Shown one piece after another: positions 1 through 42,325 of a DNA stretch of 64,000 nucleotides. The first letter of the stretch is position 1, and every line of letters begins with the position of its first letter. Below the pieces are notes generated by a model. It was given only the letters and a program-made list of their open reading frames with translations, was not told the DNA's origin and did no database searches. Made by a program: the position numbers and the translations under genes. This DNA is from Blasia pusilla (Eukaryota). Location of the stretch: NCBI GenBank assembly GCA_050084515.1, contig CM114271.1:18166001-18230000 (forward strand), given 5' to 3'.

Positions 1-152
1 AATAAAACATTTTCTCATTGCACTAAATTAGATGGCCTTTTGAAGTTGTTGAGTGGAATGGCTCGGTATTTAAAGAATGAAGAGCAGACTGCACAGTTTT
101 TGAACATTGTGTTCAGGTTTTAATTCTAATTTCTCTTCTGTGCTTATTGCAG

Positions 153-1217: not shown

Positions 1218-3340
1218 GGGCTTAAAGAGGACCATGGAATCTGATGTGGAGCAATTTTTACGAGGTCGTGTTGAGGCTATAGAGGATAGAGTATTCCCTC
1301 ATTCTACGTCAAGGGAATCGTTCGTCTAAGGGTTTAGAAACCATGTTAGAGTTCCTTGTGCTATGTGATCATACATGCATGAGACCCCTAGGTGCCTTTC
1401 TAGTTGAGCAACCTCAATTGTGAATATAGGGATAGAAATGTAGCTCTGCTGTCTGTCTGCTACTGAGGGTGAGAGTTTTGATGGAGTTAGGATGTGAAGA
1501 TTAAGTTAGATGCGCTTTGAGCACTTGGAATGTTATCATGAGAGTTGCCAATTGTCAAATGGTGTGGGGCTTGTGTGGACTTCTTCATGAAGGATGGTGA
1601 AGTTGCCCTGTTGCTGTATTTCCTCAACATCAGTCCATCCTATTTCTGTTTTGTTTGGGAGGGTCCTGTTTTAACCATAACCAGACCTTTAGCTGGATTC
1701 CCAACTCCCTCATTGTGAAAGAATTTCAGACCGTGATTTGATTGTCTTGACGACATTTGTTATCCCTTGTACGGTTGAAAAAGCAGGTGGAATGTCACCT
1801 CTACAAACAATTTCAGATAAAATGATTTAAAAAATCTGTGTCTTAGACCAGAAAGTCTATTATTACTGGGGTGGCCATGGTAAGGGTTAGTTCCACATGA
1901 TTAGGAGCTTTTTTCGCAGATGAAAAATGCATCGGTTTTCCATTGTCAAACTCATCTTTGGATAGTTTGCACTTTCCACCATGACAAGCATCTTGTTGCA
2001 TGCAAACAAGAGGTAAGCCAAAGATGAGAGTGAATTGTGGTAAGATTTGTGTTATAATCAATTCCTGCTAATGTAACTAGCTAGAATGGGGAATTTATAT
2101 ATTATGTTATCCTGACCCCTCACTATCTAGGTTGTCATGTGCTGCGTGCCAGAAACATCAGTGGTCTCTGCGCTCATGATCCCCACTCCTTCCCAGGGGA
2201 TTGATAGAGCCTTGCAAACTGTTGTTCACATGTCTGAGATCCAAAGACTACTGCCACATGTTAGAGCATTGGTCCTTCCCCGGGTCATGAATCCACATCC
2301 CTTTTCTCACAGGAACTGAATTTGTGAGGTGGCTATATAAGACATGGTTTCGGAACCTCTGATGGTGGACCAAACTTGGTCAAGTTAAGGCAAGCTATAT
2401 GAGACAGAATCTGGTTTACCTTCGATCTTGAATCAAACGTTTTGAGTGTAAGGCAGTCTCATCGTCTGAAAGTCTTCATGACTTAATTGTGTCGAAGTCT
2501 AATGTCCATCGATTTAGGTGAGCTAATGACAACTTGTGTGCAGCCAGTATTTGTGTAGACCTGATGCTCTGAGGTGGAAAGTACTAAAATTCCCCCTCTT
2601 TGTAGTCAGTCGTAAAGTTTAGAGAGTTTTCTGTCGAGATTGGAAAAGCGTAGTCTAAATTTGAACTGTTGATCGTCACAATGCCTGGAAGACTTTTAGC
2701 CTCGTCATGAATTCACGTTGGACGGGCTATTCAAACAAGGAAGCACTTTATAGTTAGAGGGTCAAAAGATGAACTTGCGAAGTCCGAGATAGGTAGACTT
2801 GTACGACACATCAAATGGAAGGATGGAATAGTCCAAAATTTGTTCCTGCAGAGAACTGACACGAGGAAGGAGCTTGCCTCCTATTAAATGGTAAAGATCT
2901 TATGTCTTTTGAAATGTCTAGTGTGGTAATTCAGGGGGTACTATAGAAGACCAAAACTGATGTTGGGACGTTTTTCAGGTCTAGTTAGAGTGAAGATCAT
3001 TACTTTGGATTCAAGAGGGCTTCTTAAAAATACTCCTGTTCCTCTTTGTTTCTTTTCGTGTTCATATAACCTACCCACTAACAATTTCTTCCTATAGTAA
3101 CTTTAACATCACTACTGAATCTCTTCCCTTCTCAAAGGGCCATTACTCTTGTTGTGAGACTGTAAGTCAAAATTCTGGGAGTTCAAGAAAGATATGGTTT
3201 AGAACAAGTTTAGACAAATTGTGTAAGAAGCACCCTCAGCTATTCTGGTCTCCATGTTGAGGACCCACAAGATTCCATATACGAGCGTACGATAACGTGC
3301 AACATGGTGCTGTTGCAGATGTACTTGTTCTACAGCCTGC

Positions 3341-3473
3341 GAAAACCGGTTGGAATTCGAGTAGGTCCTTTGTATTTCGTATCTCAAAACTGGTTCAAAA
3401 ATTGGAATTACAGCTTCCGATTAAATGTTCCCGCTGATGGACCAGGTCCCGCGAAATAACTCCCCAAACCCTG
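3341..3473 (+). repeat. Dispersed MITE-like repeat family, copy 1
   Basis: gaaaaccgg..gaattcgagtaggtcctt..tatctcaaaa..ggttcaaaa..ggaattac..ttccgatt..gatggacc..aactcccc is shared with 43035-43168. Confidence 0.7.
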
Positions 3474-5004
3474 GTAGATACAGGACGTCTGGATGAGGTC
3501 ATCCAACTGGCTGGGTTTTCGAATGAAATCGACACAATATTGATGTTTTGACCATCTTGCTCCTCCAAGTTAGCAAAGCTTTGGATGGTAAACTTGATTC
3601 CATTTGAAGTACTTACATCTTAAGCATTTCAGGAAAAAAATATGGAAACCATCGGCAAACGAACTTGCAAATGAATAATTTCAAATGTATGCTAGTTCAT
3701 GATCAAAATATAAAAATCAAAATATAAAAATCAACCATATCCATGTTAGAAATTGTACAAAATCATACCATGGAGTTTTGAACTACCCACAAACAAGGTG
3801 TTTCCTAAGCAAGTGTTAGTGTCAATCCTTTGGTAGCTCACTTCCTAAAGCCAACCAAAAGTAGTGTTGTTGAGTTATCAAGGACAATGGCTTGCATCAT
3901 GTGTAGTTCATAAACCTCTGAACTCTTATCCAGGATGTTCCCACAATCTCCAAATACGAAGTTCCCATGAATCTCCCTCGTAGAAAAAGCCATAAAAACC
4001 ACATTCACTCATTGAAAATTGAAAAGTGTCCAGTATCCGGCACCTTTCATAGGGGATCACGTGTACAAGAAAGGTGGGAAATGGAATACGCGTGAATAGA
4101 TAGGTTTAGCGAAGAGAACAAAAACAACATTTGCTTGTAGAGGCCGTAATCATAACCTACCCATAAAACACAAGTGGATGGAGATCCAGTTTGGGTCCTA
4201 ATGTGGTCACCTGGGTGCACTTGTGCGAGCCTGAAGAAATCGCTTCTTCATTCCCCTTCTCGAAATATACTAAGAATCCAAGATGGATCGCTACAAGAAA
4301 GCAACAATCTGCATGAGGTTCAAGAGTGATACACGAATATTCGTGGAAATATTAAACAATCCAATGCAAGCTAGATGAACGACTGCACAGAAAATAATCG
4401 AGTGAGATAGAGGAGAACTGAAGACCATCAGCGGCAGCACACTACATAGACTCTACTACATCACCCAAAGAACATAGAAAATCACATGAAGAAGAAACGA
4501 CCCCCACCGATGGAAGAATCTGTCCGAACTTGCCACGCACAAGAGTTGAATTGCTGTCACCATGGAGTCACTAGGAGACAAGGCTCAAGGGACTGGAAAA
4601 ACGATTGCCAACTGTGCAGACGCCGGGAGATCCCTGACACTACAAATCTCGCCAGATGCAAGGGACTGGACTATTCAAATTATATAGGGCACTGAAAGTG
4701 GGAAAAACCCTCTGGTCAGTCTTAAGGCAGAATACACAGGAGGCAAATGTGTCAATAGCCACTTTTGCAGTACTTAACTGCTGCATAACCAGAACAGGTA
4801 TCTTAGTACGTAGCTTCCTTGGGTGCGGAATATATCTACTTCGTGGCATGTTGACAACTACTTTTTAAGATACCCTTGAAGGAAGAAACAAATTTTTTAC
4901 ATCCCAACTAATCCAGCTGGGAGGGATTCCCTACTGAGCCACGAACTATATTTTCTTTTGACTGTGCAATTATGATGAGAATTGACCGAGGGGTCGGGGC
5001 AGTA

Positions 5005-7384
5005 CTATGAAATTGTACATTTATCACCTGTATCATTGGATGTGCCACCATGATCCCTCTCTACATGATTAACTAAAGATATTGCATCGTTGAAGCCCCT
5101 CCCACATTTTGGACACACGTCCAACTGTTCTTGAGAACCTCCCACTCTCCACTGCCCTGTGGAGTGCACGTTCTCTGCATGTTGAATAAGCTCAACCACT
5201 GTTCTAAAACGGCCTCCACATTGAGGGCACAATTCTCTGGCACCAGAGTTGTCACCACCAACTTGTAACCTTGACGAAGTTTGTCCAGTAGGATTTTCCC
5301 ATCGTTGAGTGCTACTCTTGACTGTAGTCAGTATGCTGTTAGTCGTAGAACCCAGCTTGGTTATACCTTTCCCAATTGTTGTTGCAGCAGTCTGGGAGGC
5401 AGAACGGACAGTGGATACACCTGTAGTGCCATTCTTGGCTCCTCCAGAAGCGCCCAGTGAAGCTTTTTCCCTAAAGCTTTTAAAAAACTGACTACCAAAC
5501 ATAGATGTATTCTTGCTCGCATCAGCTTTTCTAAATTCTTGACAACCGTGATCCGAACCAAACCGGTGCTTCAAACATATTTCCCGTCCACAGTCTTTGC
5601 ATCTCACTTTGTTGGAGAAAGTAAGAAGCTCTTTGCAGCCAAGAACAGGACATCTTGGCTTCTTGGTGGCTTTCGTATAATTACTAGGATCGCAATTTGA
5701 CTGGACATGCCTTTCCCAAGTCAGGTTGGGATCCTCTGAAGGTATCAAACGAACAGCTTTTGCACACATTGGACACACCAAAACAGTGACGTCTTGTGAA
5801 TTAGCTTTGGGACATTGGTGATTTCCGTATGTCCTGTGCTCCAGACAGAAGACCTGCACCACACTCCCACGAAATGTTAAAAACGGTGTCCTTATCCTTA
5901 ATGAGTGACTAATTACCAACCAAAGGTGACCAACCAAAGTCATCAACTCCTCACCAACTATGCATTCAAACATGCAAACTTGGGAGGAAGAGTAACTCAT
6001 CTGCATTGCCAAGCTACCATTAACTATACTACAATAGAACCATGACTTACCACCTGACCGATGTTCAGAGAAAACTGCATATAGAAATTCTCTAAGTTAT
6101 TAACGTAGGAGCTGAATGCCCATGTAGTATCTTCGACATCTCATGAAAATAGTGTAGCAGGGCACTTGAGTATTCAGTGAGATAAGACAAGGTGATGGAT
6201 GGGAGGTAACTCTTAGTTTGGACAAACTTACAGTAACACAATGGGTACCAGTAATATCCTGTGACATCTAGACGTGTTGATCTAGGCAACGACAATCTGA
6301 CCATTGTAAACACAACTATTTGGAACTAAAAATTAGACCATTTAATTGAAATATGAGCTATGATTTTCAACTCATCGCATTGCCTTGGATCCCTCGTTGA
6401 GCGACTTTTAGGTGATTTGGGCCTCTCCTTAATAACATCCTACAATCAAGAGTGAACATAATGGAGAAACAAAGTGATTCCTGCTGTATCTCCTTCGGCT
6501 CAGCAGTCAGTGTTGAGGGTGGTGCTTGGGCAAGAATCACAGATAGATTTTTACCAGATGTCATCGGGTAGAAGTCTATCCTGCTATTGAGTATACTGGT
6601 AGAGTATCCTGCTACAGACCTACAAAAAAAATGGGGATTGTTCACGAGTGGTAGATCCAGCTTGCTACATTCAAATGCAGATCTAATCTGCATAGTTGGA
6701 GGCGGCTAACACCATTTTCTCTCGGTTGACATCAAAAGTTTCCCATTGGTCACGCTAGCAATCCGTATGCTAGTGAAATGAAGAAAGCGGAAAGATTCAC
6801 GAGCTCTTGTGGAATTGACATTTGTGTCAGAAGAGTAAATCTGCGACCAGGTTGGAATTTGGTGTTTTTCATGGAGGGAAACTGTTATACGAATTAAACG
6901 GAAAAATCGCAAATCAATAGAACTGGTTTGTAGCTTTTCATCTCGCAGAAACAAACGCAACGCTTTGTCTCAGGAAATTGCAAGTTGTACTCGGTTTCGG
7001 GAAAGCCCTTGAAAGGAAATCTACTATTATGCAGGAGCACACAGCGAGTTTCTTTCATAATCACCATTCCCTACATTCCGGAACTTACAGATGCATCGCC
7101 TGGGGCACAAAGAGGATTCTTCCGAAGTGTGCGAGTTTTGTCTATCCTATCTCAAAGAGGAATAGGAGAGGGGAATTGAGTAAACCCCGAGCAACTGATT
7201 AATTATAATATATCACACGACAGTCTAAAAGAATCGTGAAAGCATGGGGAACGCCTCAGGACATCACAAGAGACAGTGTACACACCTGTTGGCACGCATC
7301 ACAACTGAAAGGCAGAAAGTCGACCAGACTACATTCTCGCACTGAGCAGTGCTGGCCAAGATTTGGAAACTCAGGCGTTCCCAT
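5005..7384 (-). CDS. AN1-AN1-C2H2-C2H2 zinc-finger stress-associated protein (SAP11/SAP13-like); exons 7384-7286 and 5853-5005
   Basis: Exon 1 MGTPEFPNLGQHCSVRECSLVDFLPFSCDACQQ|GT joins AG|VFCLEHRTYGNHQCP (AN1 finger 1). AN1 finger 2 is CPVLGCKELLTFSNKVRCKDCGREICLKHRFGSDHGC. Two C2H2 fingers follow: CPQCGGRF..LIQHAENVH and CPKCGRGF..LVNHVERDH. Confidence 0.92.
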
Positions 7385-8815
7385 CTTCAGTCAGAAATAA
7401 TCCTGCTGCTGATCCTGAAATTTGGATGCCTCGGTGGAAGATAAAATGAAAATGATTTGCCGAATCCGACAAGAAAAGAATCACCAAGAACTAGATCCGC
7501 GCAACCTTCCAGACAAGCATGTTCCGAACAGATAATTGATGGAATTCCGATTGGTGCCAATAGTTCATTGTCACTCGAGGAGTCGTCACGCTCGTATTTT
7601 CCGAGGGACACAGAGTACAGCAGGTAGCGTTGCTAGATCTGAATGCAGGCACTTCGAAAATCTTCAGGTCTAAGCTCCAAACTTCATATCGCTTCGCACT
7701 GACGGCACTTTTCTACCTGTTTCTCACTAAAGCGTAGGAGAGAGAGCGACAAGACGACGCAGCACAGAAACTCCGAGAACTTCTCCGATTCTCCACTTCA
7801 ATCCCCATATTCACCGCCAAAAGTGCACTCCGGCAGCAGACGAAGCAGTTCACGGCAGCCAGAAAACCACCATCGAACAAAAATCCTCTCCCCTGGACAA
7901 CATTACATCGAATTCGCCCCACCGCTCCCTCCCTCCCGAGAGAGCGAGAGCGAGAGGCGCTCCGGGCCTGACCGAGCTCTCTCTCCGGGTACATGGAAAC
8001 AATGACGCCCCTGTCATAACGCTGCCAATCTTCGCGGCGCACGTTCGGACTCGCCCGGGCCGCCAGCCAGCGACGAGCGAGCGAGGTTCGGAAGCTGCAG
8101 TGGTTGGTGACAGACCAAAGACCAACCGGAGCAGCCCGACGCTCTTCCCTGGGCCCGAACTCATAGGAGACAGGACTAAGGACCCCCGTGAGTCCTTAGT
8201 CCGCAAGGTTGCCTTCTTCCGCAGAATCCACAGACGTTCGCAACTTCGCCGTCCGGGGCTGGGTTGGTCGGTCCCACCGCACACGGGAACCTGAGAGGGT
8301 CCTACCTTCCTAAGTTCCTAGGGGCTCAGAGCTGCCCTACGGACAACGACCGTAAGCCAAAACGGGGTACCCCGTTGGGATTACCATCATCGTCCTCTTC
8401 CTTACGATATTTGTAGTTTTAAATCTATTTTTATTTTATAATATCAAATAAAAATCACGGGTGTGGTTTTGAGTTTCCGTTCACGGCAGTTTAGACTCGG
8501 GATTTATGACGATTCGAATAAATAAATATCTAACTATAAAATCTATATTATGATGGGATAGTGTCTTCTTGATTTGCAAACACTTTTATATTTGACACGT
8601 GGTAACTGGGCATCAAAATATTGTTTCACATGGCACGGGCAATAAGAAAAAAAATTGAATTTGTGTGGAACATCATTAATCACTTTCTTTCACTGCCTAT
8701 ACACTAAATAAACCTTTTAAAAATAAATAAATTTCGTGCATCGCATGGACACCTTACTAGTCTCTCTTTGATATCGATACATGTCGATAATCATACTCCT
8801 AGAACTTGTGACATT

Positions 8816-10271
8816 TGTTACAAACCCTATCGGACCAACATGTTGAGATGAGTATGAGAGTGAAATCCCATCCCTTCCCATATCAACAAAATGCCACACA
8901 ATTATTTTTAGTGGAGACTTGATCAACCATCCTAGGCTTATCCCATTGTTGGCTCTAGTGAACACTCCCACACACTCTTTTGAAGTCCAAGAGATATCAG
9001 CATATTTGCACGGCTTGGTATTAGGCCTAGTGGTGTGGAAGACACATATGCTGATCTGCATATGGGCTCACATGAGCACATAACACTAGGATACTCTCAA
9101 CTTATGACATCTTACTTACTACGACATATGCTCTCACTATAGAGCTATAAAGTGATTTGGTTGAATCAACTCTTGGTCTCATCATATAATATGACATGCT
9201 TGAACCTCTAAGTGTTGTTTGAATGTGGAATTGGCACCTTTCCAACTCAAAAATCAAGAGTCCCTACCCTAAACCTCTCACTAAACCTTCAACCAAGCAT
9301 CATGGGTTATTCGTTTGAGTGTAACAACACATGCTATAGCTAAAACACCACGCCAAAGGGCCCCTTAAAAAACACCCTTTGTGTTATCCAAAAAAGAAAC
9401 ATCAAGAGTCTCCAACACTAACTCAATATCTAATGTGGTTGGAAACTCCACCACTTTGGCACTTACTACTTGCCAAGCAACACTCGAATGTTCCAATGTC
9501 GAAAATTCCTCTACGATCTCTCCACTAGGAGGTACTACTATGTCTCCAAAAACTATTTGCAAAAATACCATGACTCTAAGATTGGTGGAGGCCAACCAAA
9601 ACACCTTTGCATATGGCCATACCTAATGTTTTCATATCCATAAAACAAAATAAGGATGTTCCGCACTTCATTTTTTCCGCCTCCTACAATGTAGTCAACT
9701 AAAGTTCATCATGAGCTCTTGGAGGCTCCATTAGTGCTCTTAAAAATCCAATTAGCGTGCTCGCCACTCCACTTGATGCACTTAGCATTCCACTTGGTAT
9801 CAAAGTTGCACAACAACGGGATCATCATGACCTCCAACAACATGAACAATGTGGTGACCCGATGAACCTACTAGCCTTTCCTCTTTGGGGATTCGAACTC
9901 TACATCAATATCTTGTGGCTCAAATGCTCTACCTGCCCCATGAGTCACGATGGATCTTGCATCCAACTACACAACAACGCATAACAAATCCAACCCTACA
10001 TTTGCAAGTCATGCATTTGTATTATAGGTCTCCAATGCATCACTTCCAACTCCTTCATTTGTTGGATGATGTGCCATGGTAAGCACATCCCTCTATTATT
10101 CCATCCATTGCATCCAAATCCTCATGTTACCATTCAGTACAACAATGCCATCATCTCAATGGATGGTTGGCCCTCTGAACCATGTGTCGTGCGAATCCAC
10201 ATCGTCATACAACATACATCGTTGACATACCATACTCACATACATACATAACATAGACGAGAGCATCCACA
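8816..10271 (-). mobile_element. Highly degenerate LTR-retroelement-derived sequence abutting the truncated RT
   Basis: Starts with TGTGGATG at the RT break point. It shares short blocks (acgatgtggatt, agagggccaac) with the LTR-like region at 39.8-40.0 kb. No intact ORF; the left boundary is uncertain. Confidence 0.35.
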
Positions 10272-10789
10272 ACTTCAAAGGGTCCAATGTGCTACTCTGA
10301 ATCAGGTCCCTCTCCATATCACTATATCGGTAGGGACGACGGAAGATTAGCGTATCACTAGCCAAATCAATCCGTATACCGGGTCGAACCAGAGCACCCA
10401 ACTCCTTCATGCTAAAGGCAAAACAACTCCTATAAGCACGTAGGAACTGTGTCAAGCGTCGTTTCTCACCTCCTGTGAGCTTGGGCCCAAGTAATGGCTC
10501 CCAAGTCTCCTCCACTGGCACACTAGAGGGAGAGGACGATGCCATTGGCTGCTACGCAACCCCCTCACAAGATGGTACACCCTTAGCTACACCATCATCT
10601 GAGCAAATAACTCCTCCACCAACATGAGCAACCAATTCCACATGCCCAACAATTACATCCCATTTACTCCAAGGATGCAAAATACTACTCTCCTCGCCCC
10701 CAGCCGATGCCTCTACCGTCTCGGTAGCCATCGAGCTCATTACAAGGGGTGGAAGACCCACAGACATAGTCCGAAGTCGACGCTGCTCG

Positions 10790-11745
10790 GCCATACCAAG
10801 ACTCAAAATCCAAGTCAAACAATTCAGGTCCATGGCTTGACCCAACACATGACGTCGTGAAGCCTCGAAATGGAAGCAACATTTGTCATACCAAAGAGAA
10901 AATCCCATCACGCTCTCTCATCAGCGTTAGGCTCCACCAACTATCGCACATGAGAATCCCATAGAAGCCCGGGACCACCTTCCCTGTATGCATGTGACAA
11001 GGGAAAACTCACAAATGTAGGTGTTGCCATCCTAGGCTGGCCCACACGGTTCACCACTACCATGGGTGACCGATCAATAACCCTCACCACCTGAGAAAGT
11101 CGCCCAGTATCCAAGATACTATCCACTGTAAGGCAAGGATCTGCAGACCTTTGCATCATATGCTCGACGTAGAACCTCCCTAGGCAACAAGTTTGTCCAC
11201 CACAAGCGTGGGCGATGTGCACGCTGAGCCAACTCGTTGCATCCAACAACACCGCTGGTCCAATCCAAGACCGCACCTCATGAACACTCGCCATCATCGG
11301 GGTCCGAGTGTCACCCAACAATGGAATATTCTCCAGAATGTAAGCTAGAGCACGTGCTTGATGAACGTGAAGATGTCGTAACACCCGTAACATCTCCCAA
11401 AACAATCAAGACCTAGGGTCGTGTAATCCCTCACCACGACCAGCACGTGTATGACCCTGACATGGCTATCCAGAAATCACCAAATCCACAGGACCAACCC
11501 TCTCAAGGTCTTGCGCCCCCAACAATGCAATGTGTGACGGCAAAACACGCTGGTACCCACGAATAGCTGATGGCGGCAACAACTCAGGATATCTCCGCAT
11601 CAACTGACCAATATGTCGGGATGAGACTCTCTGGGCCGTCTCATCTCGCTCCACATGCACGTATCTCCGCATAGGAATACCGGCCTGCAACACTACAGCC
11701 AAACCAGTGCTAATCCCACCAAAGAGATCTAACACACAAATGCCC
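10790..11745 (-). pseudogene. DNMT3-like C5 DNA cytosine methyltransferase domain embedded in the retrotransposon pol (disrupted)
   Basis: Motif I VLDLFGGISTGL; motif II YVHVERD; motif IV VDLVISG*PCQG; motif VI YILENIP. After a frameshift, motif VIII reads AHRPRLWWTNL (compare DNMT3 AHRARYFWGNL). Motif IX EPNADERERVMGF and motif X SRRHVLGQAMDLNCL follow. Stops at 11466-68, 11406-08 and 10941-43. Confidence 0.88.
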
Positions 11746-12040
11746 TCCGCCGGATACTGCCATACAATGGGTGTAGTATCCAAAGGGGATAACCCAACTG
11801 GACCAGAAGTAGGAGTCCGCCGTGGGGCCTCCTCTTCCTCGTGAGGTATAACAGCCTCACACCAGGCCTCCTGCACTAGGCGATCAGCCTCCTGCCGTAG
11901 TGCATCGCATGAACTCCAAATTGGCACATCCAACGATGAGGATGCCACTGCTGCAAAAATAGGGACCTCCTCTACCTCCTCATGCGGAGGAGAATCCATA
12001 GCAAAAACATTACCCTCCAAAAAGTCTCCTGGCCAAGTGA

Positions 12041-12859
12041 CTACTCCACTAAAACCAACCACAGATGCTGACACTGTGGGGAAGACCCTCCTGGTCGAGC
12101 CCCATAAATAAATCTCATAGGAACTTGGCTCATACGTCCATCCCCGGACTGCCAACCAGGTCTATAAGACGCTCTCTCAGTCCAGTAATCCATCTGAAAA
12201 CCCATCGGGTACAATATTGCTCCTCCAACTAGTACATCATACGACTCGGCTGATGTGACTACCGCAGATACTCCCAACCGGGAGCTATCAGTCGCATGAT
12301 CTGGTCTCACCTGTACAGAAAACATCTCCCGTGTCATGAATTGAGACCTATCATTGGCTCCTCCAAGTGATGTTTGAATCTGGAATGGGCAAGGCTCAAG
12401 ATCTGACCTCCGAATACCCAAACCAGTGCATGCCGCCTTTCCCAACATCAAAGGTTGGGCACCAGAGTCTAACAAGACTCTATCTGGTCTATACACCTGT
12501 CTTGTAGGACTCACCAATCGGAATATCCCAATCCGGTTGTCCAACATACATACACCAGGTGTAAGCCTCTCACGATCAATGGCTGGCCGGGCTAGTAATG
12601 CATCCATCTTCGCCGCTGCTGCCTGCCAAGTAGCACTGGTACTCAATCCTACACCTGACATAGAGGGTCGCTCCACCGCAACACCCTCATCCACCTTAGC
12701 ACGTGTAGCAGTAACATCCCCACGTTCACACAACGTGGATGCTAGCTGAAATACAGGAGCTAAGTCAACTCCTAAAGCCATCAGCTCCGTGGCCGAAAAC
12801 AATGGGGATCCCAACACTGAAGTTTCCATCCGCAATCTTTTGCCTTTGGATCGATGCAT
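12041..12859 (-). pseudogene. Retropepsin-like aspartic protease region of the Gypsy pol
   Basis: VLLDSGAQPLMLGK active-site motif and a downstream YDVLVGGAIL (ILG-type) motif. Confidence 0.8.
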
Positions 12860-12999
12860 CCGTGTCTACTACACGCCATGTAGATGCCTCAGTCCCCACT
12901 TTCGGCTCAATAGGCTGCGTAGGAACCATGGATGGAGTCCTAAGCACCTCAGACAACAAGAATGACTGGAGAAGCCTAGCTGCGCCTCCCGGCCTCACC

Positions 13000-15166
13000 C
13001 CTCTGTGGGTCCAACTCACAAGAGCACCACGTGGCTCGACGCTTTCGAGTGGCTCCTCTCGTGAATCGCAGCCGATGCCTCAACTTTTGTCTTTGCACTC
13101 GCCATATAAGAGAGATCATCCCCTCCATAAGAGGTGGAAGCCCCCTGCTCCCGAACACGATCTATCTTTGGATACCGACCATAGTAGCCAGCTTATGCTC
13201 CTACTGCTCAATCCTGGCAGCCATAGCTGACTCTGTCGTAGTGGTAGGGGTAGCCACCGTAGGCTCTCCAACCACTGGTCCACCTCTACCACCCCTACCA
13301 CCTCTACCACCTCGGCCTCTCGGAGCTACTCCACCACGGCCGCGGCCTGATCTCAACTATGGATGAAGATCAAAGCAACGCTCTTGAGGATGACCTGGTC
13401 TCCCGCAATGATCACACTGAGTTGGGGCCGACTGAGGCCCATCCTTCAAATTCCGTCTCCCATCCTCTTGGGAACAAAACTTCCTAACATGATCACCTCC
13501 ACATGTCCAACATGACTGTCCTTGCTGCGGGGCAGCAAATGAAGGCAATGGTCTCTACGCAAGTGTCTCTTTAGGACCGGACTGAGGTCGTGTGTACCCC
13601 CCACGACTCCCACTACTACTACCACCACCACTACTATGATACTGTGAGGTGGGCTGCTGAACACGAGAAGTAGTAGTTGTATCCCTACTAAATGCGGATG
13701 TCACCACTCCCTCCTTCACCATGTTAAGCTCAATCTTCTCAGATAGAGCAAACACATGGATCAATGTGGATGAATCATCACTCATAAGAGTAGCATCACG
13801 TACCCTGAGACGCAACTCTCTGTCCAAGATCCCATACCAAAACTAGAGTGCCTGAGCCTCAGTCACACCCTAGGTAACTGAAATCAAGCGTCGCATACGA
13901 GTTTATGCCTCACGAAGACTCTCACCAGTCTTTCGCTCAAACTCTTGAAGACTCCTCAACTTCTCTTTGTCTTCACTCCTTGATAGTTCTTCTTCAACCT
14001 CTTGAAGAACTCTGCAACCGGGCTAAACAATGGTGGGGCACTAGTACCTCCACTAGTACCCCCACTGGTACCTCCATGGGTACCTCCACTGGTACTCCCA
14101 CTCCAGATCGTACTCGTACCACTCAACGTCGGGCTGGCTGGCATAGTAGGAGCACTACTACCAATACCACCATGGGTGATAGACACATAGCGTGGAGACC
14201 AATATTGTCTCCACGCCTCAATCTCAGCAACATGGTCCTTCCTAAACTCATGGTAATCATCCATGTGTGGTCCCTCAAAGTGCTGAAACAACCCCTTCCA
14301 AGCCAAGAAGGGTGTAAACAACGTGGCGTTCCGCAACATCTGCATATCACACCACGTATCAAACTCTTGCATGAAGTCCTCCAACTCAATGGTGCCCACT
14401 GCACCCGAGTACCGTCGTGTGCCCTTCATGGCCCCATATATCCTATCCATGTCCCAAATCAATGGAGCTGCAACACTCGATAACAACGTAGAAGACTCGG
14501 TGTTTGGAACACCCTCGTCCTCCTCTTCATCAACCGTCGGAAGTGGAAAAGGTAGCCGGTACCTAAATCCACTCCGTGTGAAACCACCACTGTCCGCACC
14601 ACGGTCCCCAACCAGACCACCAAACAGCTCCGTGATGACCAACGTCGATGCCGCCCCACCACCAAATTACCACCTCTAAGTAACCAAGTGACGTCGATGT
14701 CGCTGTACTATTCTAGCTCTACTGGCTATGGGTGTAGGCAACCTAACCTGTCATCACCACAAGAAGCCTCCCACGGTCTACTGGTCATCACTCCAGCCTC
14801 ACTACCGGTAGCACACAGGAGTAACACTACTCTGGAAATCAGCGTCAACCCTAACAATGGGCGCGCAAGCAAGAAGCAACGATGGAGGGGATCCAAACAC
14901 AGGAAGTCCAACGAAAATCCTCCAATCGCAAATGGAAATCAACGTAACATAATCCACCAAACGTGGCGCCCCCTGAATCCACAAAACCCACCACACAATT
15001 CTAACGCAATAGCTACTCCGCCGCGGGTCGATGACGTGCTAGTCGAACTTGCAGCACTTGAAAATATCATCTGCATGGAGAGGCTACACCGTACTATGCG
15101 CAAGAGGTCCATCAACCAAAAACCTGAGATGCATAAAGTGCCTAACACCTCTCCGAACAGCACCAA
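13000..15166 (-). pseudogene. Gypsy gag (frameshifted), with capsid-like region, two CCHC zinc knuckles and an RGG tract
   Basis: ORF fragments 13956-14642 (ELEDFMQEFDTWCDMQ..), 13555-13827 (LDRELRLRVRDA..FALSEKIELN) and 13357-13548 (two knuckles), followed by GRGRGGVAPRGRGGRGGRGG. Boundaries are approximate. Confidence 0.75.
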
Positions 15167-16197
15167 ATGAGCTACAACAGTGTGTACACTGGCAAAGTTA
15201 AGAACTCAGCAGTTAAGCGTCTTCCAGGCAGAATAGCCCAAAGATGGGTGACCGGTTATGCAACACTCAAATCACAAATCCTGCAAAAAATTCCTCACGC
15301 CCAAGCAAGCAAGCTTGCTTGCTTGCTCCTTGCTCCTTACTCCGCCTCTCACGCCCACTCGCCCCGAGCTACCACGAGTTGCCTTGAAGCCTCAAAACGC
15401 CGAGAAATGCTCGAGACATGCCCCGTTCGCCACGCTTCGCCATGCTTTGCCATGCTTTGCTATGGAGAGAGAGGCCCAACTAGGGCGCCCCCAACGGGAT
15501 AGGCGTCTCCAACAATGAACAAGTCACCAACCAACCAGCCCCTCCGATCCGCTGTCCACCATAGCCAGACCTTGAGCTAGTCCGCAAAATTTCGATCAGC
15601 AATTACTCCACAAATCCTTGACCAAAATTGAATCTGTTTCAACCAGAATTGAATTGACCACCATAGCTATCTCTCCACAAAAAATCAGCTACAACCAAAC
15701 TCTGTATTCAGAGCTAAAATCAGACAAACTTGCTGTCCATACACCTCCAGAATCGCAAATCCGACAGCGCTTCCGCCCAGTTTCATGCACACAGAAATCC
15801 GCAACGCTTCACACACTCGAGCAGATAGCTTCACATGAGATCAAAATACAAGTAGCAACATGAACCTCTCACCCGATCTAGATGAACTTCAACAGAGCTT
15901 CCGCACTCCAAGCTCTCCACATCAAAAAACCGTCGAACACGAATCAGAATCTTCAATCCTTGATAACTTCCAACTCCCTTGACGAAATCCGGCGATCTAA
16001 AGCACGTTGCAAAGCTCTCAACAAGGCGCTTCTTTCCCAACCAACCACGCACCAGATCGACACCTCCAACATAGGCCACAAGCCATGAACATCCACGGCC
16101 GAGTACACAATCAGCCCTAACAAGATCCTACTGATCCACAATCGAAGCTACCATCGATCTACTCCAGTTCTTTGAGTGAAATCCGTGAAAGACCTAC

Positions 16198-16544
16198 TGT
16201 CATAAAACACATATAGAATCACATACAATCGAGCCAAACCCACTCCACGATGGGAGAATCTAGGTCGAAGCTTGCGGGAAACAGCCTAGCCAAGAGCTCT
16301 ACTCACTACCAAGGCTAACTCCCAACGCAACAGGCTCAAATCAAAGAACTGACTGTTCTTTGAGTGCACTCCACCTTATATCCTCCAACCTAAGAGCGGG
16401 CCCTATTGGAGAAGCCACCCTCAACTGAGTAACCCCCAAACCTATGTATGAAATCGCATCTCTACCTAGACACTGCGGCCCTACATAAGGTATGGCCTCT
16501 ACTAGCACACTATACTCTACGACATAATCCATATGGTCATGACA
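16198..16544 (-). repeat. 5' LTR (about 347 bp) of the methyltransferase-bearing Gypsy element
   Basis: On the minus strand it begins TGTCATGA and ends TTATGACA (TG...CA with 6-bp terminal inverted repeats). It has an internal TATAAG near 16380-16375 and lies directly upstream of the gag leader. Confidence 0.7.
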
Positions 16545-17350
16545 CATGCCCTATACATGGTTGATATCTACAACCACATGGTGAGACAATTTATTATCAA
16601 GGACTAGATCTTTGGTTGAGTAATGGGATGCATTCATGTAATGGTGTTTCAAAAAAGAACTACAAAGATGACACCACAAGTGTTTTTCCTATGGGATGTT
16701 CATACCAGTATATCTATCTTCATGTTAATTTTATTGCGAATTAGTAAAAAAATATTATTTATCTAATAGATTTTTTCAATGACTATTTGCCTTTAGGATT
16801 GTCTCCACATGGTTTCTCTATGAACATCGATCCTTAACTTATACTTTAAAAAATAAGAAAGGGTCAAAAGACAAGCAAATGGGACACTAATACAGTATTG
16901 GTGGTTTCTAGGTTTACGCAACATCACACACACGAATAAATAATTTTAAAGAGAATATTGGGGATGAATTTTTCATTCCATGGATCCCATTGATTTCATC
17001 GACTTGGGTTTTCTTTTAATTCATTGAAAATATAAATTTCCTTTTTTCTTGTTTTTGGATCATTATTAATAAATCTCAAATTCAAATTAGTAAAGAAATT
17101 GGTATGTGCAAAGGGTTCATTTTTTTTTTCATAATAATGATATTAGACGTTCTATGGGGCAGGTACTATAAGTCCAATCTATACGATTCTTTGAAAAGAA
17201 ATCCGTGAGAAATCTTTTCAAAAATTTTATAAACTCTACACCATTGCCCATAATGCACCCTTTCGCCTTGCACTAGATGTATCACACGGAATTATTATTT
17301 GTATTTTAAAAATAAAATATTAATTAAAAAATTTATACGAAATAACTTAC

Positions 17351-17520
17351 ATTATATGTAGAAAAAAGATGGGGAAACCCATCACATTACAAAAGTGGGG
17401 ACATAAAAAATAAAAATATGGACCTCAAGAGGTCAAAACCGGAGGAGAAAGAAGGAAGCCTCCCCTAACGATCAAAATCACCATCAGCATAAACAATATC
17501 AATAACACCCGAGAGAGGGA
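17351..17520 (-). mobile_element. Short 3'-end fragment related to the CRE-like element at 23.9-27.1 kb
   Basis: tatatgtagaaaaaagatggggaaacccatcac..acaaaag..gacctcaagagg aligns by eye with tatatgtagaaaaaggatgggaaacccatcac..acaaaag..gacctcgagagg at about 23922-24004. Confidence 0.6.
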
Positions 17521-19856: not shown

Positions 19857-22800
19857 TTAATGTTTCTGCTCTAGGCTTTCATAGAACAAGATGTAACCAT
19901 GATCTGTATTGTTTGAGTATTCTTGCGTAGAACCAAAAAAGGTCTGCACAACCGATTCATCGATAATCTCCACATTTTCATCATCAAAGAAAAGCCAGTG
20001 ACTGTGGCTCTTAACTAGACTGACGTAGTGACCATGATTAGGCCCACTTCCAACATGAACCACGACAGCAAACAATGAGTACTCTGCTTCAGACCCGGGT
20101 GCGTCATCCGTTGTATTGCAGAGTTTAAGCTCCAGTGGGAACACAACTCGATATGAGAGTTTCTTGTACCTTCCCAGTTGCTCAATGAACTTAAATCGCT
20201 TTAGGTGAAGAGCAAGTATTCGAGGAGGGGACTTAATCTTCATTCTTTTCTGTGCCTCTTGCAAACTGCATGACATTGAAACTGACAATTCAGCGGATTG
20301 TAAACCAGAAAATTTTCATGGTTCAAACTTGTACTGTCATCAATGTTAGTAACTATTCTCGCCATGAAACCTAAAATCTCCAACACCATATTTTCTTGAT
20401 ATTTACTTCAGTCCTATCCTGTTGTGTCTATTTCTTTCATTGACTATGGAGAGATGTAAATATTAAGAGCAGCGGGGAAATGTTGGATGGCTTCTTCTCT
20501 AGTCCATCACCCTAAAAACTGGCTTTAGGACCGAAGGAAGAAATCTTACCTGCAGCACTTGTCGCAGAAAAATTTGTCCTCGGCATTCAATGTTTCTGTG
20601 GAACTGAAGTTTCGGAGACAACTCGTGATGGAACTGTTCTGCTCAATATCCAGACTGAGGTCCAAAAACGTCTCATCTCGTGCAGTTATGGTTTCACACC
20701 TGAGACACCTTGTTTCATTTGTCAACGTACCCTGGAAATAGTTTCGAACATTAGTGAAGAGGCGGATGTGTAAACTCTAGTCGCAAATTCCCCCAAAACA
20801 AGGCCCTTTCGTGTGCGATGAGAAACAACATGCAAATATATGAACACGTTTGTCAGCACAGGTCAGAAATTTAAGATATCCACGTAACACCTCTTGCATA
20901 AGGTCCAGGGGAGTGGGTGGATATTGTGGTAGACATGGCAAGGGCTATATTTTTGCAGCTAAACATTCATCTACAGAAGTACAGTTTGAAATAGAGATCT
21001 ACTAGTACTTGAGGCATGTGTCGGAGTCTGAAGGGAAACCTGAAAGATCTTGTGCACCCATGTAACCACATTGTGATAATGATTTCCATTTGATGTCCCA
21101 TTGGCAGTGCCATTCGCCAACCTGTCAGGGTGGGCTTGGTGGCCTGACGTTGGTTTAGAAGATGCCTTGGCTTCTTTCTCCAAAATGTCCACGAGTTCAT
21201 TTAGGAGAAAGTTCAAAAATTCATGGGCGTCCTGCAAAAACAAATCCTACTTAAGGCAACTATACAGTAGATGCCCTCCCTTCAAAAGTCTCCTAGTTCT
21301 GGTGGTTGTATGACAGCATAAAGAAACAGACAGGAAATACAAATCCATTCCTGGCTCACAAGGCGGTCTTCCTCATAAAGAAACACTGACAGGAAGTACA
21401 AAATCTATTCCTGAATCACAAGCAGGTCTTCCACATAATTCAGAGTAGCTACCAGCTTTGCAATATCATGGATATTCCGGACATAAAAGCCCAACTTCAA
21501 TAGCCTCACACACATGAGAAAAAACATGAAGCATCCATACCTGATGCATATAGCTCCGGAAGAGTTCATTCTGCTTCTTCACTCTTTGAACAAAACGCTT
21601 AGGAGCTATAACTCCGGTCTTTTTCTTCTGGGAGTTAATCTGCACAGCAAAGCATCATCCATCTGAATTTAAAAAATCAAGCAGTGGTGGTCCCAGACAG
21701 TGAAATCACAGTAGGGATGCACAAAAACGTGGACATAAGAAAACAGTATGGTGAAGACACCAGGTTTTTTTGGTTCCAAAAGTGGGTTAGTTTAGTGAAG
21801 TGACAAGGAAGAGATTACCCACCTGAGTAAACAGTTCCGACAAGCATGTGAGGAGATTTTCCTCCGTTTCGCCTGAGCCCTTGCTGCGGCTTGCATGCTC
21901 CAGCAGTTGATCCCTGAACGGGACACAGAAGTATAGAGCCTGTAGCAATCCCAAAACTGTAGTCAGATGTCACTAATCGAAGCTATCCGGTGGGAATACA
22001 TCCCTTTAAGTGTCCACAAACTAGTACAGAGCATCAACCAGGTGTGAAAAGAAGTGAAGATGACTAGTAATTGGTAAGGAAAACGATGACAATGCACTGA
22101 ATCTGCCCTCCCTGATCATTTCATTCGTGGCAGCTTCTTTTTGGGCAGGATGGTCTAAAATGCCTCAAAATCTCAACTTGCGACGATACTTTTCCGAAAG
22201 CCTAGCAGGAATATCTAGGTTCAGGAAGGAACCAAACAGGCTTGCCGATGGTTTACGTGGAGTGAAGGACCATTCTGAACGCTGAACAACAAAAAGAAAA
22301 CCATTGCCGCAGAGATAATAGGGCAACCCGGAAGCAAAAAATACAGCGCTATCCCTTAAATACAACGAAAGCTAATACAAAAGACTGACGAGAACTCAGC
22401 ATTTTTTCAATAATTGGCCTTGTTTGACCTAATAACCTAAGCGTGATACCCTCGACGACTACGAAGAAGAAATTTACACCGTTTCTATCTCTGGTTATGA
22501 CTTGATTAAGTAGCACACACTGCGTGCTGGACATTGGCAGTGCGCTGACCTCCCCAGCATGAGATAGTAAACGTCTACGAGGACGTCCGTAGTTACAGTG
22601 CATAGATTACAAAAAAACTAACTCAATTCTGACCAGAGCGTACTTCTTCTATTTTTCATATTCATGGCACAAATTGGCGGAGGTTTCAATGATCTATGAA
22701 AACAGCCACTTAATTTGCATTCTCCCGTTTCTTGACGTAACAGAGCGGTACTAGGATCCGAAAGGGTTGCAACCTGGCGGGTGACGCCGTGATGGGTTGT

Positions 22801-23276
22801 TCGACTAATCTACACAGAATAAAACATCATCTCTTATTTTCTCTACGACGCCCTAAAGATATACCCTGAATTCGCGCCTGCGCCTCCGAATTTCTGTACT
22901 ACTGGATGCTGGGCCACCGATCTCCCCGTATCGACCTACATGTAAGCGAAATTTCGTCCAGAATCTGAACACACGCTCGACATAGACCTCCAGCCTGAAA
23001 TCATTCTCTCGCAAATAAGAGTCGGATCCAACATTTCCTCTCACAAGAAGAGAACCGCGCAAAAGTCAGAAGTATCAACACCCATTTCTTCGTGCCACCC
23101 CTTGAATGAAACAGCCTAGGTATACAAGGCTTGTCAGAGAATGTCTGCCGTACCTGCAGCACACTATTGCAGTAACAGGTGTTCCCAAAGTTCTCTAATC
23201 CAAAGTACCGCTCTCCTTCGGGAAATTGATCCCCTAGCGCCTTTTCCAGCTTTGATCCTGAACTTCCCATTACCAT
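19857..23276 (-). CDS. UBP3: Ubiquitin-specific protease UBP3/UBP4-like (USP12/46 family); exons 23276-23154, 21939-21823, 21639-21541, 21231-21040, 20731-20550, 20265-19857
   Basis: N-terminus [41 protein letters not shown] (Cys box), [15 protein letters not shown], and His box [26 protein letters not shown]. All five introns are GT-AG with consistent phases. Confidence 0.95.
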
Positions 23277-23484
23277 GCGTCTCTCTCCTCCCTCTGTCTA
23301 ACTCCCCGGATTTCAACAAGTACACGGAGCCCGCAGTGTGCACCCTAGACCTACTCCTCGCCACCACGGCACTGCAAGGGCAAGAGATGCGGATCGCGGT
23401 GTGTGATCATATCTCCAGTTTCATCCTTTCCTTCGCCACCGTGACTGAATTTTTTTCCAAGATCGATCCTTACCGAAACTAGAT

Positions 23485-23641
23485 TCACTCACATCTCTCT
23501 CCCTCTCTACGTCTTCCCTCCCTACTCTTCCTCCTCCTCCTACTGCCCTTTTTTTTTCCACCCCCACTCAAATCAAATGCTCCCTCCTGTTCCAAAGCAG
23601 TCACCACTCCGCTCCCCCTCTCCCTCCATCCATCGAAATCC

Positions 23642-23672
<31 letters not shown>

Positions 23673-23750
23673 TCCTCCCTCTCTCCGTCCTCTTCCACCT
23701 CCCTGTATGTGTTCCTCTCTCTCGCTCTCTCTCACTCTGTGTCTCACTCA
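23485..23750. repeat. CT/GA-rich microsatellite tract in the UBP 5' leader/promoter
   Basis: (CT)n runs at about 23640-23745, immediately upstream of the minus-strand UBP start. Confidence 0.7.
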
Positions 23751-23914
23751 GCAAGCAAATGTTGCTTCCCCGCTGCCGTGCAGAGAGAAGGTCGACTAGT
23801 CGCGGATGTTTCTCCGGATACTGCTGATTACGCTGCTCATGATCTTGTTCTCGTCTGTCCGTCCGTTAGTCCCGCCGCTGCCGACGCTCCGGACTCGGTT
23901 GTCGAAGAAAGAAT

Positions 23915-39200: not shown

Positions 39201-39540
39201 CACATATTTTTCATGAATTATGCCCATGGCATTTGAGAGCTTAGCTACAACTCAACATAGGGATACATTCAGGTATGCGATCCTTCGTGGAGGAGTTTAT
39301 CGTCCACAAATTAAGAGATTTCATTCTGGAGATTATGTGTATTTATAACAAACGGCACCCAAGATTGTAGATGTCACTACAAGACGCATATTTTTGGGTA
39401 TGCACGAGGTCTTGCCAACAGAGTCCTTAAGTTGGAGGGACTAGACGGTATGGTATGGTTAGGAAGGATCATATGCGCAACTGTGCACCATATCATCTTT
39501 CGAATGTGGATGGGAAAGTGGATTTGAGCTTGGCAGTGGT

Positions 39541-39697
39541 AGGTGCGGGCTTGAGGTGTATGTTGTGTAAATCTACAAGGGGTACAACCACCATGTTGGT
39601 GTGTAATGGTTCTTCTCCGGGATGAAATATATCGTGTCTGACCCTCCCTCTTGATGCGGTTTCCACAGGATGATGGTTATGTTCTAGTTGTGTATAG
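39541..39697 (+). pseudogene. PHD finger at the C-terminus of the Gypsy integrase (degenerate)
   Basis: Translates GAGLRCMLCKSTRGTTTMLVCNGSSPG*NISCLTLPLDAVSTG*WLCSSCV*, which fits the C4HC3 PHD pattern CxxC..MLxCDxCxxGWHxxCLxPPLxxVPxGxWxCPxC with decay. Confidence 0.8.

Positions 39698-42231: not shown

Positions 42232-42234
<3 letters not shown>

Positions 42235-42321
<87 letters not shown>
42235..42321. repeat. (GA)n microsatellite
   Basis: Pure GA dinucleotide run of about 87 bp. Confidence 0.98.

Positions 42322-42325
<4 letters not shown>

Follow-up and report, generated by a model that had tools for sequence, protein, structure and literature searches.

A DNMT3-like methyltransferase as an integral domain of a multi-copy, transcribed Ty3/Gypsy family, represented by a decayed copy in Blasia pusilla

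Architecture of the element

A stretch of 64,000 nucleotides of Blasia pusilla DNA (contig CM114271.1; referred to as the window and numbered from its first base) was analysed. Its minus strand holds, at 16544-10185, one Ty3/Gypsy-type retrotransposon that encodes gag with two CCHC zinc knuckles, a protease (PR), a DNMT3-like C5-methyltransferase (MTase) and the first ~90 residues of a reverse transcriptase (RT). An earlier note, made from the letters alone, had described the minus-strand order gag, protease (LLDSGAQ), MTase and RT N-terminus, and inspection of open reading frames (ORFs) located all four where it had placed them. The gag ORF lies at 13956-14666 and is continued in subsequent frames; two knuckles of the form C-x2-C-x4-H-x4-C (CWTCGGDHVRKFC and CDHCGRPGHPQERC) are encoded in ORF 13357-13554, the protease motif VLLDSGAQ in ORF 12041-12865, and the RT N-terminus (IFRRPYRYSDMERDLI) in ORF 10156-10551. 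In relatives of the element zf-CCHC and Asp_protease_2 were detected by Pfam. Two parts of the earlier outline had to be redrawn. The element does not end at 10272 but at 10185, the segment 10272-10185 being a terminal repeat (B) and 10273-10275 an internal deletion joint; and what had been called a long terminal repeat (LTR) is a 368-bp repeat (A, 16544-16177) followed by a 1.7-kb leader, the terminal repeats not being ordinary LTRs. The features are as follows.

16545-16548, minus strand: target-site duplication CATG, upstream copy; the identical 4 bases lie beyond the other end (10184-10181).
16177-16544, minus strand: repeat A1, 368 bp, starting with TGTCATGACC, with TATAA at 16380-16376 and GTTCTTTGA at 16349-16341; its end was set by comparing A1 with A2 in the sister locus L031.
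14451-16176, minus strand: leader, 1.7 kb, opening with CTCAAAGAAC (16176-16167) at the position of a would-be primer-binding site.
12979-14450, minus strand: gag, encoding two CCHC zinc knuckles (inside 13357-13554) and interrupted by 7 in-frame stops and 2 frame changes; collinear with residues 1-471 of the Marchantia protein P0159 at 52-59% identity.
12080-12835, minus strand: aspartic protease (LLDSGAQ), stop-free here; 56-70% identity to Marchantia copies and a weak Pfam gag-asp_proteas match.
12077-12100, minus strand: copy-specific change from the PR frame to the DNMT frame; in most sister copies PR runs into the DNMT linker in a single frame.
10866-12074, minus strand: linker and DNMT3-like C5-MTase catalytic domain, motifs I, IV, VI, VIII, IX and X; PF00145 at 30.1 bits, 55-66% identity to Marchantia copies.
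10555-10865, minus strand: C-terminal tail of ORF1 beyond the MTase; aligns to the last ~100 residues of Marchantia P0159, whose end corresponds to window 10555.
10552-10554, minus strand: conserved ORF1 stop TAG, then CAG CCA ATG, in frame with RT; TAG/TAA in 29 of 30 copies, TAC in 1.
10276-10551, minus strand: start of ORF2, the RT N-terminus, broken off at 10276; matches P0161 residues 696-785 at 66% identity.
10273-10275, minus strand: internal deletion joint; the L031 element aligns at 1-5533 and 9032-9127 only, and loose read ends fall at 10272 and 10276.
10185-10272, minus strand: repeat B2 without its 5' end, ending ...CGCACGACA, the 3' terminus of the element; 82% identity to B2 of L031.
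10181-10184, minus strand: target-site duplication CATG, downstream copy.

The window copy is dead, as had been supposed: it is decayed and internally deleted. In codons aligned to P0159, ORF1 contains 11 stops, 7 in gag and 4 in the MTase (11468, 11408, 10943 and 10910), together with 5 frame changes; an out-of-frame patch carrying motif VIII and the internal deletion add to the damage. The four MTase stops are TAG 11468-11466, TGA 11408-11406, TAG 10943-10941 and TGA 10910-10908, the patch spans approximately 11277-11119, and a further frame change lies near 10917. The single-nucleotide frameshift reported between PR and MTase near 12078 was found at that position (12080-12077), but it is by no means the only lesion. 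The TAG at 10554-10552, on the other hand, is the native ORF1 stop of the element family and should not be counted as decay. Both true termini are retained; missing are L031 coordinates 5533-9032, i.e. the remaining RT, RNase H, the integrase with its PHD finger, and the repeats B1 and A2.

Identity of the methyltransferase domain

Along the frame the MTase motifs follow each other in canonical order: VLDLFGGISTG, ISG*PCQG (the asterisk is a stop) and ILENI in frame 10941-12161, AHRPRLWWTNL in the shifted patch 11119-11277, and VMGF and RRHVLGQAMD in 10552-10917. Motifs I (FxGxG), IV (PC), VI (ENV) and VIII (RxR) are all present in the window, with PCQ immediately after an in-frame stop. The observed order I, IV, VI, VIII, IX, X differs from the circularly permuted DRM order, in which VI-X precede I-IV. 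This agrees with the earlier description of the domain as DNMT3-like and not DRM-permuted, and DNMT3A is its best solved relative.

Scanned singly by Pfam, none of the nine ORF pieces (0/9) matched PF00145, and only a sub-threshold protease match of 13.7 bits was obtained. When frame 10941-12161 was read through, with X at its three stops (query P0001), PF00145 was matched with 30.1 bits (cut-off 22; E 4.4e-07), which is the hit that the earlier note had named as a check. The same family scored 49 bits in ORF2 of the sister locus L011 and 27-46 bits in relatives. A phmmer search of the PDB with the window MTase ranked DNMT3A first (E 1.7e-07), followed by DNMT3B, NtDRM, M.HaeIII, DRM2, M.HhaI and DNMT2; across the PDB searches DNMT3A came first (E 1.7e-07 and 4.8e-11), then DNMT3B/3C, then NtDRM and M.HaeIII, then DNMT2. 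An AlphaFold model of L011 ORF2 (pLDDT 85.7, pTM 0.80) was compared by Foldseek, and all matches listed were to catalytic domains of DNMT3A, 3B or 3C (best E 6.3e-20, target TM 0.84, ~20% identity). The catalytic Cys and the Glu of ENV are invariant in 37/37 aligned relatives; PCQG, ENV and RxR are invariant in 6 close relatives, and FxG is likewise kept in close relatives.

By sequence and fold the closest enzyme class is the DNMT3 catalytic domain, an assignment made by similarity and not from a rooted tree with plant DNMT3. No PWWP or ADD reader domain was found by Pfam in the ORF1-type proteins, for which it returned CCHC, protease and PF00145 only. Judged by its sequence and by the model, the domain is a DNMT3 catalytic fold with all catalytic motifs and without the PWWP/ADD readers of cellular DNMT3. 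It shares with the cellular enzymes (human DNMT3A/3B, the best match in both sequence and fold) the canonical motif order, and differs from them in its low identity (~20% to human DNMT3A in the structural alignment), the lack of PWWP/ADD and of introns, and its embedding in the Gag-PR frame.

The methyltransferase in related elements

A one-off capture, in which a host DNMT3 gene or its retrocopy came to lie within one Gypsy copy, the present one, and is unrelated to the family as such, would be compatible with the self-comparison of the window, which found only one MTase-bearing copy, and with the presence of cellular DNMT3 genes in bryophytes (PpDNMT3b and MpDNMT3b, according to the accessible part of the literature). 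The earlier note had held, to the contrary, that the MTase is an integral polyprotein domain, and had named its absence from sister elements as what would refute this. A HMMER search with P0001 yielded 1,929 proteins at E <=0.001 and 32 at E <=1e-30, many of them polyproteins of 1,200-3,200 residues. A word-indexed search for longer proteins gave 20 matches at E <=1e-10: Marchantia polymorpha supplied 15, Calypogeia fissa and Sphagnum fallax 1 each, and there were 3 more. The MTase was present in 20/20, and all 20 were collinear with gag, PR, DNMT and RT N-terminus of the window over the parts covered. Their identity to the window was 42-76% for gag, 51-70% for protease, 46-68% for the MTase and ~66% for the RT N-terminus. 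Pfam gave the order DNMT-RVT-RNaseH in P0161 and P0175, and CCHC-protease-DNMT-RVT-RNaseH-integrase in P0037. Metagenome contigs were scanned as well; 112 confirmed relatives gave 80 loci, of which 56 (L001-L056) are close relatives with the same domain order; PR continues into the MTase in one frame in most copies.

The complete Ty3/Gypsy set of gag-CCHC, aspartic protease and RT-RNase H-integrase (DDE type) is present in the full relatives P0037, L011 and P0192, and the window copy retains gag, PR and the RT N-terminus. Pfam detected rve and Integrase_H2C2 in relatives and, in those scanned, no phage-integrase (tyrosine recombinase) domain; with DIRS/Ngaro elements only the repeat layout is common.

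Two DNA contig sets (X1 and X8) and two RNA read sets of the source organism were mapped to window 9000-17500 at >=85% likeness. On the element 138,636 (X1) and 3,220 (X8) DNA records were placed. Summed contig depth within it was 17,883-121,873 (X1) and 1,615-8,992 (X8), with most flank bins at 0-7 and bin 17236-17500 at 108. The MTase bins (10704-12123) had depths of ~30,000-44,000 (X1) and 2,161-4,975 (X8), not below those of gag and protease, and the A repeat about twice the internal depth. Such summed depths are not copy numbers and were taken only to indicate that the family has multiple copies and that the MTase is part of them; the possibility that the MTase occurs in this copy only therefore fails.

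Overall, sister elements hold the same domain at the equivalent position, in 15 proteins of Marchantia, 1 each of Calypogeia and Sphagnum, and 56 metagenome loci. One-off capture is further opposed by the shared PR-MTase frame, the equal depth of gag/PR and MTase, a dN/dS of 0.17 (see below), and the flanks and target duplications of sister copies, which differ from one another, unlike those of segmental duplicates of one locus; we give it practically no credence. On the sequence evidence a Gypsy family has the MTase as an integral domain, kept by purifying selection.

Sorted by domain order, the 224 retrieved proteins comprised 65 with the MTase before RT, 75 with the MTase between RNase H and integrase, 78 with the MTase alone and 6 with none of these. 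In a quick maximum-likelihood tree of 150 MTase domains the two orders are separated by a single change (SH-aLRT 97 for the RNase H-MTase-integrase clade), and the window MTase nests among Marchantia copies. This tree is unrooted and contains no cellular DNMT3, so that one acquisition followed by rearrangement and two acquisitions from related donors are indistinguishable in it.

Selection and integrity of the copies

Ratios of dN/dS were estimated by the Nei-Gojobori method on tblastn-derived codon maps anchored to Marchantia proteins, with stop codons dropped. Near-identical copies (dS 0.02-0.15), which reflect post-insertion decay, gave 0.66 for the MTase, 0.81 for gag, 0.95 for protease and 0.74-0.83 for the linkers. 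Divergent pairs (dS >1) gave 0.17 (n=50), 0.24 (n=8), 0.35 (n=38) and 0.42-0.46, respectively. For the window against four sister copies (L001, L002, L025 and L031; dS ~0.5-0.9) the values were 0.28-0.31 for the MTase, 0.33 for gag, 0.33-0.36 for protease and 0.21-0.40 for the linkers. The dN/dS comparison had been proposed in the earlier note, and between divergent subfamilies it comes out at 0.17 for the MTase; by these rough values the constraint on the MTase is at least that on protease and gag.

Among the metagenome copies most are dead: each domain holds several stops, though often in one frame. Locus L011, the most intact relative, is near-intact: no aligned codon is a stop, and three ORFs follow each other in the same frame, of 957 aa (CCHC, protease), 438 aa (PF00145) and >=766 aa (RVT, RNase H, integrase). 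The first in-frame stop of L011, ~30 codons before motif I, was considered as a second programmed stop and rejected, as other copies are without it. Database proteins called without introns include continuous reading frames of 1,330-1,451 aa that encode protease and MTase, e.g. P0207 (a cluster of 19 members). One Marchantia cluster at 90% identity has 18 member sequences, which suggests recent activity.

Two observations concern base composition. In L011 (321-6809) the CpG observed/expected ratio (o/e) is 0.28 and that of TpG+CpA 1.43, compared with a CpG o/e of 0.57-0.66 in decayed copies; its low CpG could, as a single case, reflect long-term methylation pressure on an active lineage. In L001-L056 and window 10185-16544 many stops occur, often within a single frame, and transitions far outnumber transversions in the read differences; both patterns would fit deamination of methylated cytosines.

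Expression of the family

In two stranded runs 2,336 and 1,982 RNA reads fell on the element, and they covered all of it, the DNMT part included. First-mate depth was 18-88 and 9-114 on the plus strand and 0-7.5 and 0-2.2 on the minus strand, an excess of ~10-fold or more in every bin of the element. Given the usual library type, the RNA is that of the minus strand, the sense strand of the element. Only 14/2,336 and 22/1,982 reads were >=99% alike to the window, and the RNA therefore stems from sister copies. A search for sequencing runs containing the stretch gave none recorded as RNA; the RNA evidence is that of these two raw-read runs, which bear the same species label, alone. The family is transcribed and the window copy is silent or nearly so. 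A pile of fragment ends at 16383 was considered as a poly(A) site and rejected: repeat A of the window has ~27 extra bases there relative to the other loci, and clipped alignments are the likelier cause.

The ORF1 stop and the PHD-tailed integrase

In the RT frame the codon before '...QPMASS..ETWEP' is TAG in 19, TAA in 10 and TAC in 1 of the 30 anchor-bearing copies, which include the near-intact L011 and the window. Marchantia P0159 terminates exactly at this position (window 10555), and more than 20 ORF1-like proteins of several sources end 80-150 residues past the MTase. The conserved stop and the protein ends therefore define a layout in which ORF1 comprises gag, protease and MTase, and ORF2, after the stop, RT, RNase H and integrase; some lineages have a fused single frame (P0037 and P0192). 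The C-terminus of the integrase is a C4HC3 PHD finger, detected as Pfam PHD in P0192 and P0022.

A leaky stop separates gag and pol in murine leukaemia virus, and UAG-CAR-YYA is the read-through context of the tobacco mosaic virus (TMV) type. The family has, ahead of RT, an in-frame UAG or UAA followed by CAA CCC (window CAG CCA, L011 CAA CCA); in most copies the second codon is CCC and differs in this from the YYA of the TMV-type context. By analogy with these systems, RT-RNase H-integrase would be made through read-through of the stop.

Terminal repeats and insertion

In 3/3 loci that hold the whole 3' end (L031, L027 and L028) the full layout is A1 (~340 bp), leader, ORFs, B1 (~113 bp), 2 nt, A2 and B2. 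The element starts with TGTCATG and ends with ..GACA (TG..CA ends), and the start motif of A is common to 20+ metagenome loci. Target duplications of 4 bp were found in the window (CATG), L031 (AAGG) and L054 (CACA); that of L007 is imperfect, which makes 3 perfect among 4 complete pairs. Self-comparison of the window revealed neither a further copy of A or B nor a pair of LTRs. All RNA reads that cross 10185 continue at 16544 after 2 intervening bases (90 and 124 reads, at local depths of ~82 and 107), and this read junction is the B1-A2 junction of the sister copies.

Three of the usual Gypsy marks were not found in the element, namely identical LTRs as its outermost parts, a tRNA-type primer-binding site following the 5' LTR, and a polypurine tract ahead of the 3' LTR; a polypurine run, AGGGGGG, stands immediately before B1 and not before A2. 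What we take to be the iMet-type primer-binding motif had 5 matches in the window against 4.8 expected, and 0 in the element. The sequence GTTCTTTGAG, ~30 nt past TATAA in repeat A, is the reverse complement of CTCAAAGAAC just after the end of A1, and both occur in 9/13 copies examined. The retrotransposon Tf1 primes its own reverse transcription; set beside Tf1, the present family has a decamer after the TATA box that is complementary to the primer-binding position. Also in repeat A, downstream of TATAA (window 16364-16341), lies a near-perfect hairpin, CTCAAAGAAC-(5 nt)-GTTCTTTGA, that is kept in most loci and whose first arm repeats the decamer of the primer-binding position.

We infer from these ends a circular intermediate. 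Reverse transcription, perhaps self-primed as in Tf1, would give a product with ordinary [B-2nt-A] LTRs; if the two ends of this product were joined and the integrase then opened it at the palindromic ..CAYGACA-NN-TGTCATG.., the order A...B-2nt-A-B would result, and the A2/B2 joint would mark the point of closure. To our knowledge such a replication geometry is not known for integrase-bearing LTR elements.

A second piece of the same element group lies on the plus strand at 35089-39760. It is truncated at its 5' end and consists of decayed RT, RNase H, integrase and PHD-finger remnants. It starts at L031 coordinate 5572, compared with the break of the minus-strand copy at 5533, and is 66% identical to L031, compared with 75% for the minus-strand copy. 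This near-complementarity (also seen in P0161, residue 785 against 782) would suit a single element, its halves 16544-10276 and 35089-39760 split by an inversion without internal deletion, and the geometry fits an inverted segment 10276-35088. However, the minus-strand piece is directly followed by B2 and a matching 4-bp duplication, no A or B repeat follows the plus-strand piece, and from the 75% of the former an identity of ~77-80% would be expected for the latter, because 3' halves are better conserved. We regard an inversion as very unlikely. The plus-strand fragment is probably a separate insertion, because it is the more divergent of the two.

Relation to known elements

Elements of this kind have been described in the charophyte Klebsormidium nitens (KnitGypsy-Dnmt3) and in the dinoflagellate Symbiodinium (SymbioDIRS-Dnmt3) (de Mendoza et al. 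2018, Nat Commun 9:1341); here and below, statements on both follow the accessible text of that paper. With KnitGypsy-Dnmt3 the present family shares the Gypsy domain set, an unrearranged Dnmt3-type MTase in the polyprotein, the absence of introns, purifying selection (Ka/Ks <0.2 there, 0.17-0.3 here) and the repeat layout 'A-coding region-B-A-B', noted there as the DIRS layout and present here in every locus with a whole 3' end. By that paper's description all distinguishing traits of KnitGypsy-Dnmt3 (Gypsy domains, Dnmt3 MTase in the polyprotein, A-coding-B-A-B) recur, and the element is of the same kind and not a new category. It differs in its host, which is a liverwort-like land plant (close copies occur in Marchantia, Calypogeia and Sphagnum), and in the placement of the MTase, which closes the gag-PR ORF before the conserved stop and is described as part of the Pol ORF in KnitGypsy-Dnmt3, the two being compared by description only. 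No Klebsormidium sequence was found among the 150 listed of the 1,929 matches or in the 20- and 45-match searches, where names are known for 30 proteins only.

SymbioDIRS-Dnmt3 has in common with the family a Dnmt3-type MTase in a retrotransposon polyprotein and the A-coding-B-A-B repeats, and in yeast its MTase domain brings about de novo methylation of CG (de Mendoza et al. 2018, Nat Commun 9:1341). DIRS elements, however, use a tyrosine recombinase and make no target duplication, whereas in the present family a DDE integrase goes together with TG..CA ends and 4-bp duplications.

Green-algal Gypsy elements (Scenedesmus sp. PABB004, Monoraphidium neglectum and Cymbomonas tetramitiformis) resemble the family in having a related MTase (30-40% identity), in their Gypsy RT, RNase H and integrase, and in a PHD finger at the C-terminus; their MTase lies between RNase H and integrase (RT-RH-DNMT-IN-PHD) and not, as here, between protease and RT. 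They form a large sister group, with P0083/P0184 (Scenedesmus), P0185 (Monoraphidium), P0221 (Cymbomonas) and many others, whose named members are chlorophytes. We know of no paper on these elements.

What appears to be new is the presence in land plants (liverworts and a Sphagnum copy), the multi-copy, transcribed state, the place of the MTase in ORF1 before a conserved stop, an integrase that ends in a PHD finger, and A...B-A-B ends that are flanked by target duplications. The earlier note was not aware of such elements having been characterised in land plants, and a full-text literature search found no liverwort or moss report, with supplements and subscription papers (e.g. the 2017 Marchantia genome paper) outside its reach. 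The acquisition of the MTase was placed 'in the K. nitens lineage' by de Mendoza et al. (2018, Nat Commun 9:1341); the origin of the element type now moves to at least the streptophyte stem, or else transfer between lineages has occurred.

Retrotransposons with an enzyme of the host-silencing type have been known from Symbiodinium and one charophyte alga, and in the accessible text on them the Gypsy-borne enzyme is never shown active. In Marchantia polymorpha, for which transformation, CRISPR and methylome tools exist, many copies of the present family bear the anonymous annotation 'hypothetical protein'. With the family in so tractable a host, the purpose of a transposon-borne DNMT3 becomes testable. 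These copies can also inflate the number of DNMT3 genes counted in bryophyte genomes.

Proposed mechanism and function

Taken together, the data argue strongly, in our judgement, for a decayed, deleted copy of a multi-copy Ty3/Gypsy family whose intact form is A, leader, ORF1 (gag, PR, DNMT3-like MTase), stop, ORF2 (RT, RNase H, integrase-PHD), polypurine run, B, 2 nt, A, B, and which would methylate itself by means of packed MTase. The MTase would be made in Gag-like amounts, and RT-RNase H-integrase only when ribosomes read through the leaky stop. The MTase, being one part of Gag-PR-DNMT, would be packed into the particle in which cDNA is made and could methylate the new cDNA or pre-integration complex, so that new copies would arrive with the 5-methylcytosine mark of the host. 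The DDE integrase would then act on the TG..CA ends and generate the 4-bp duplication. Handles on this mechanism are offered by the position of the MTase in the Gag frame, the conserved stop after it, the integrase with its PHD tail, and the A...B-A-B ends flanked by target duplications. The earlier note had thought of methylation of the family's own cDNA or insertion sites, for self-silencing or camouflage; self-methylation of cDNA is the function suggested for the enzyme here, and methylation of own cDNA so that insertions arrive marked was also proposed by de Mendoza et al. (2018, Nat Commun 9:1341).

Several points weigh against this picture. The domain of KnitGypsy-Dnmt3, the closest known enzyme, produced no methylation in yeast, a result that its authors do not regard as decisive because DNMT3B failed there too (de Mendoza et al. 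2018, Nat Commun 9:1341). RNA, or host chromatin, may be the substrate in place of cDNA, or the role may be structural. The CpG o/e of the element is 0.66 against 0.67 for the window, i.e. this copy bears no special methylation footprint, and CpG depletion was rejected as a sign of self-methylation, being uninformative at window level. The dN/dS values are rough, with dS >1 saturated and mostly dead copies on both sides, and the Marchantia proteins are gene models in which introns may skip defects. The strand of the RNA presumes the usual library type. Read-through is suggested by conservation and context only, and an ATG two codons past the stop in 28/30 copies (GTG in L011) also permits re-initiation. 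The circular intermediate is drawn from sequence logic alone.

The domain might be retained without DNA methylation, as a DNMT3L-like binding or scaffolding module or as an RNA methyltransferase acting on genomic RNA. Inactive paralogues such as DNMT3L lose catalytic motifs; in the family, by contrast, the catalytic Cys and Glu are invariant and FxG, PCQ, ENV and RxR are kept in close relatives, and the best fold match is DNA-bound DNMT3A. The position in the Gag frame, where nucleic-acid chaperones sit, would suit a non-methylating module, as does the negative yeast result with KnitGypsy-Dnmt3, and RNA methylation has been raised by de Mendoza et al. for a LINE-borne DNMT; the SymbioDIRS-Dnmt3 domains, on the other side, methylate CG de novo. 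We hold this explanation to be unlikely, though worth keeping in mind.

Somewhat less likely still, in our view, is that the enzyme acts on the host genome (insertion neighbourhoods, rival transposons or host genes), perhaps guided by the PHD finger, and not on the element's own cDNA. The PHD finger at the end of the integrase is of the chromatin-reader type, and an MTase made in Gag-like amounts, as the conserved stop would imply, would far exceed the need of one particle's cDNA. The MTase and the PHD finger, however, belong to separate reading frames, and protease cleavage would part them; no targeting domain lies beside the MTase, where Pfam finds PF00145 only.

Beyond self-methylation by the packed enzyme, a wider proposal is offered tentatively, as possible but doubtful in its entirety: that bryophytes, Marchantia included, harbour a still-transcribed Gypsy lineage of the same stock as the Klebsormidium element, in which a DNMT3 forming the tail of Gag-protease before a leaky stop is packed in quantity and pre-methylates the cDNA, and in which DDE integration proceeds from a circular or LTR-LTR intermediate opened at the palindrome.

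Neighbouring sequences

The window is plant DNA and contains a C-terminal exon of a host PEP-carboxylase (46222-47046, minus strand; PF00311, 381 bits) and a host AN1/C2H2 zinc-finger (ZFAND2-like) ORF (5005-6096, minus strand). A different retroelement, with an RT ORF at 25462-26205 on the minus strand (PF00078, 71 bits), lies in a GC-richer block (22000-28000) with the same strand skew as the DNMT element. A long AT-rich stretch (30001-36000, GC 0.33-0.34) is situated between the two Gypsy-DNMT element fragments.

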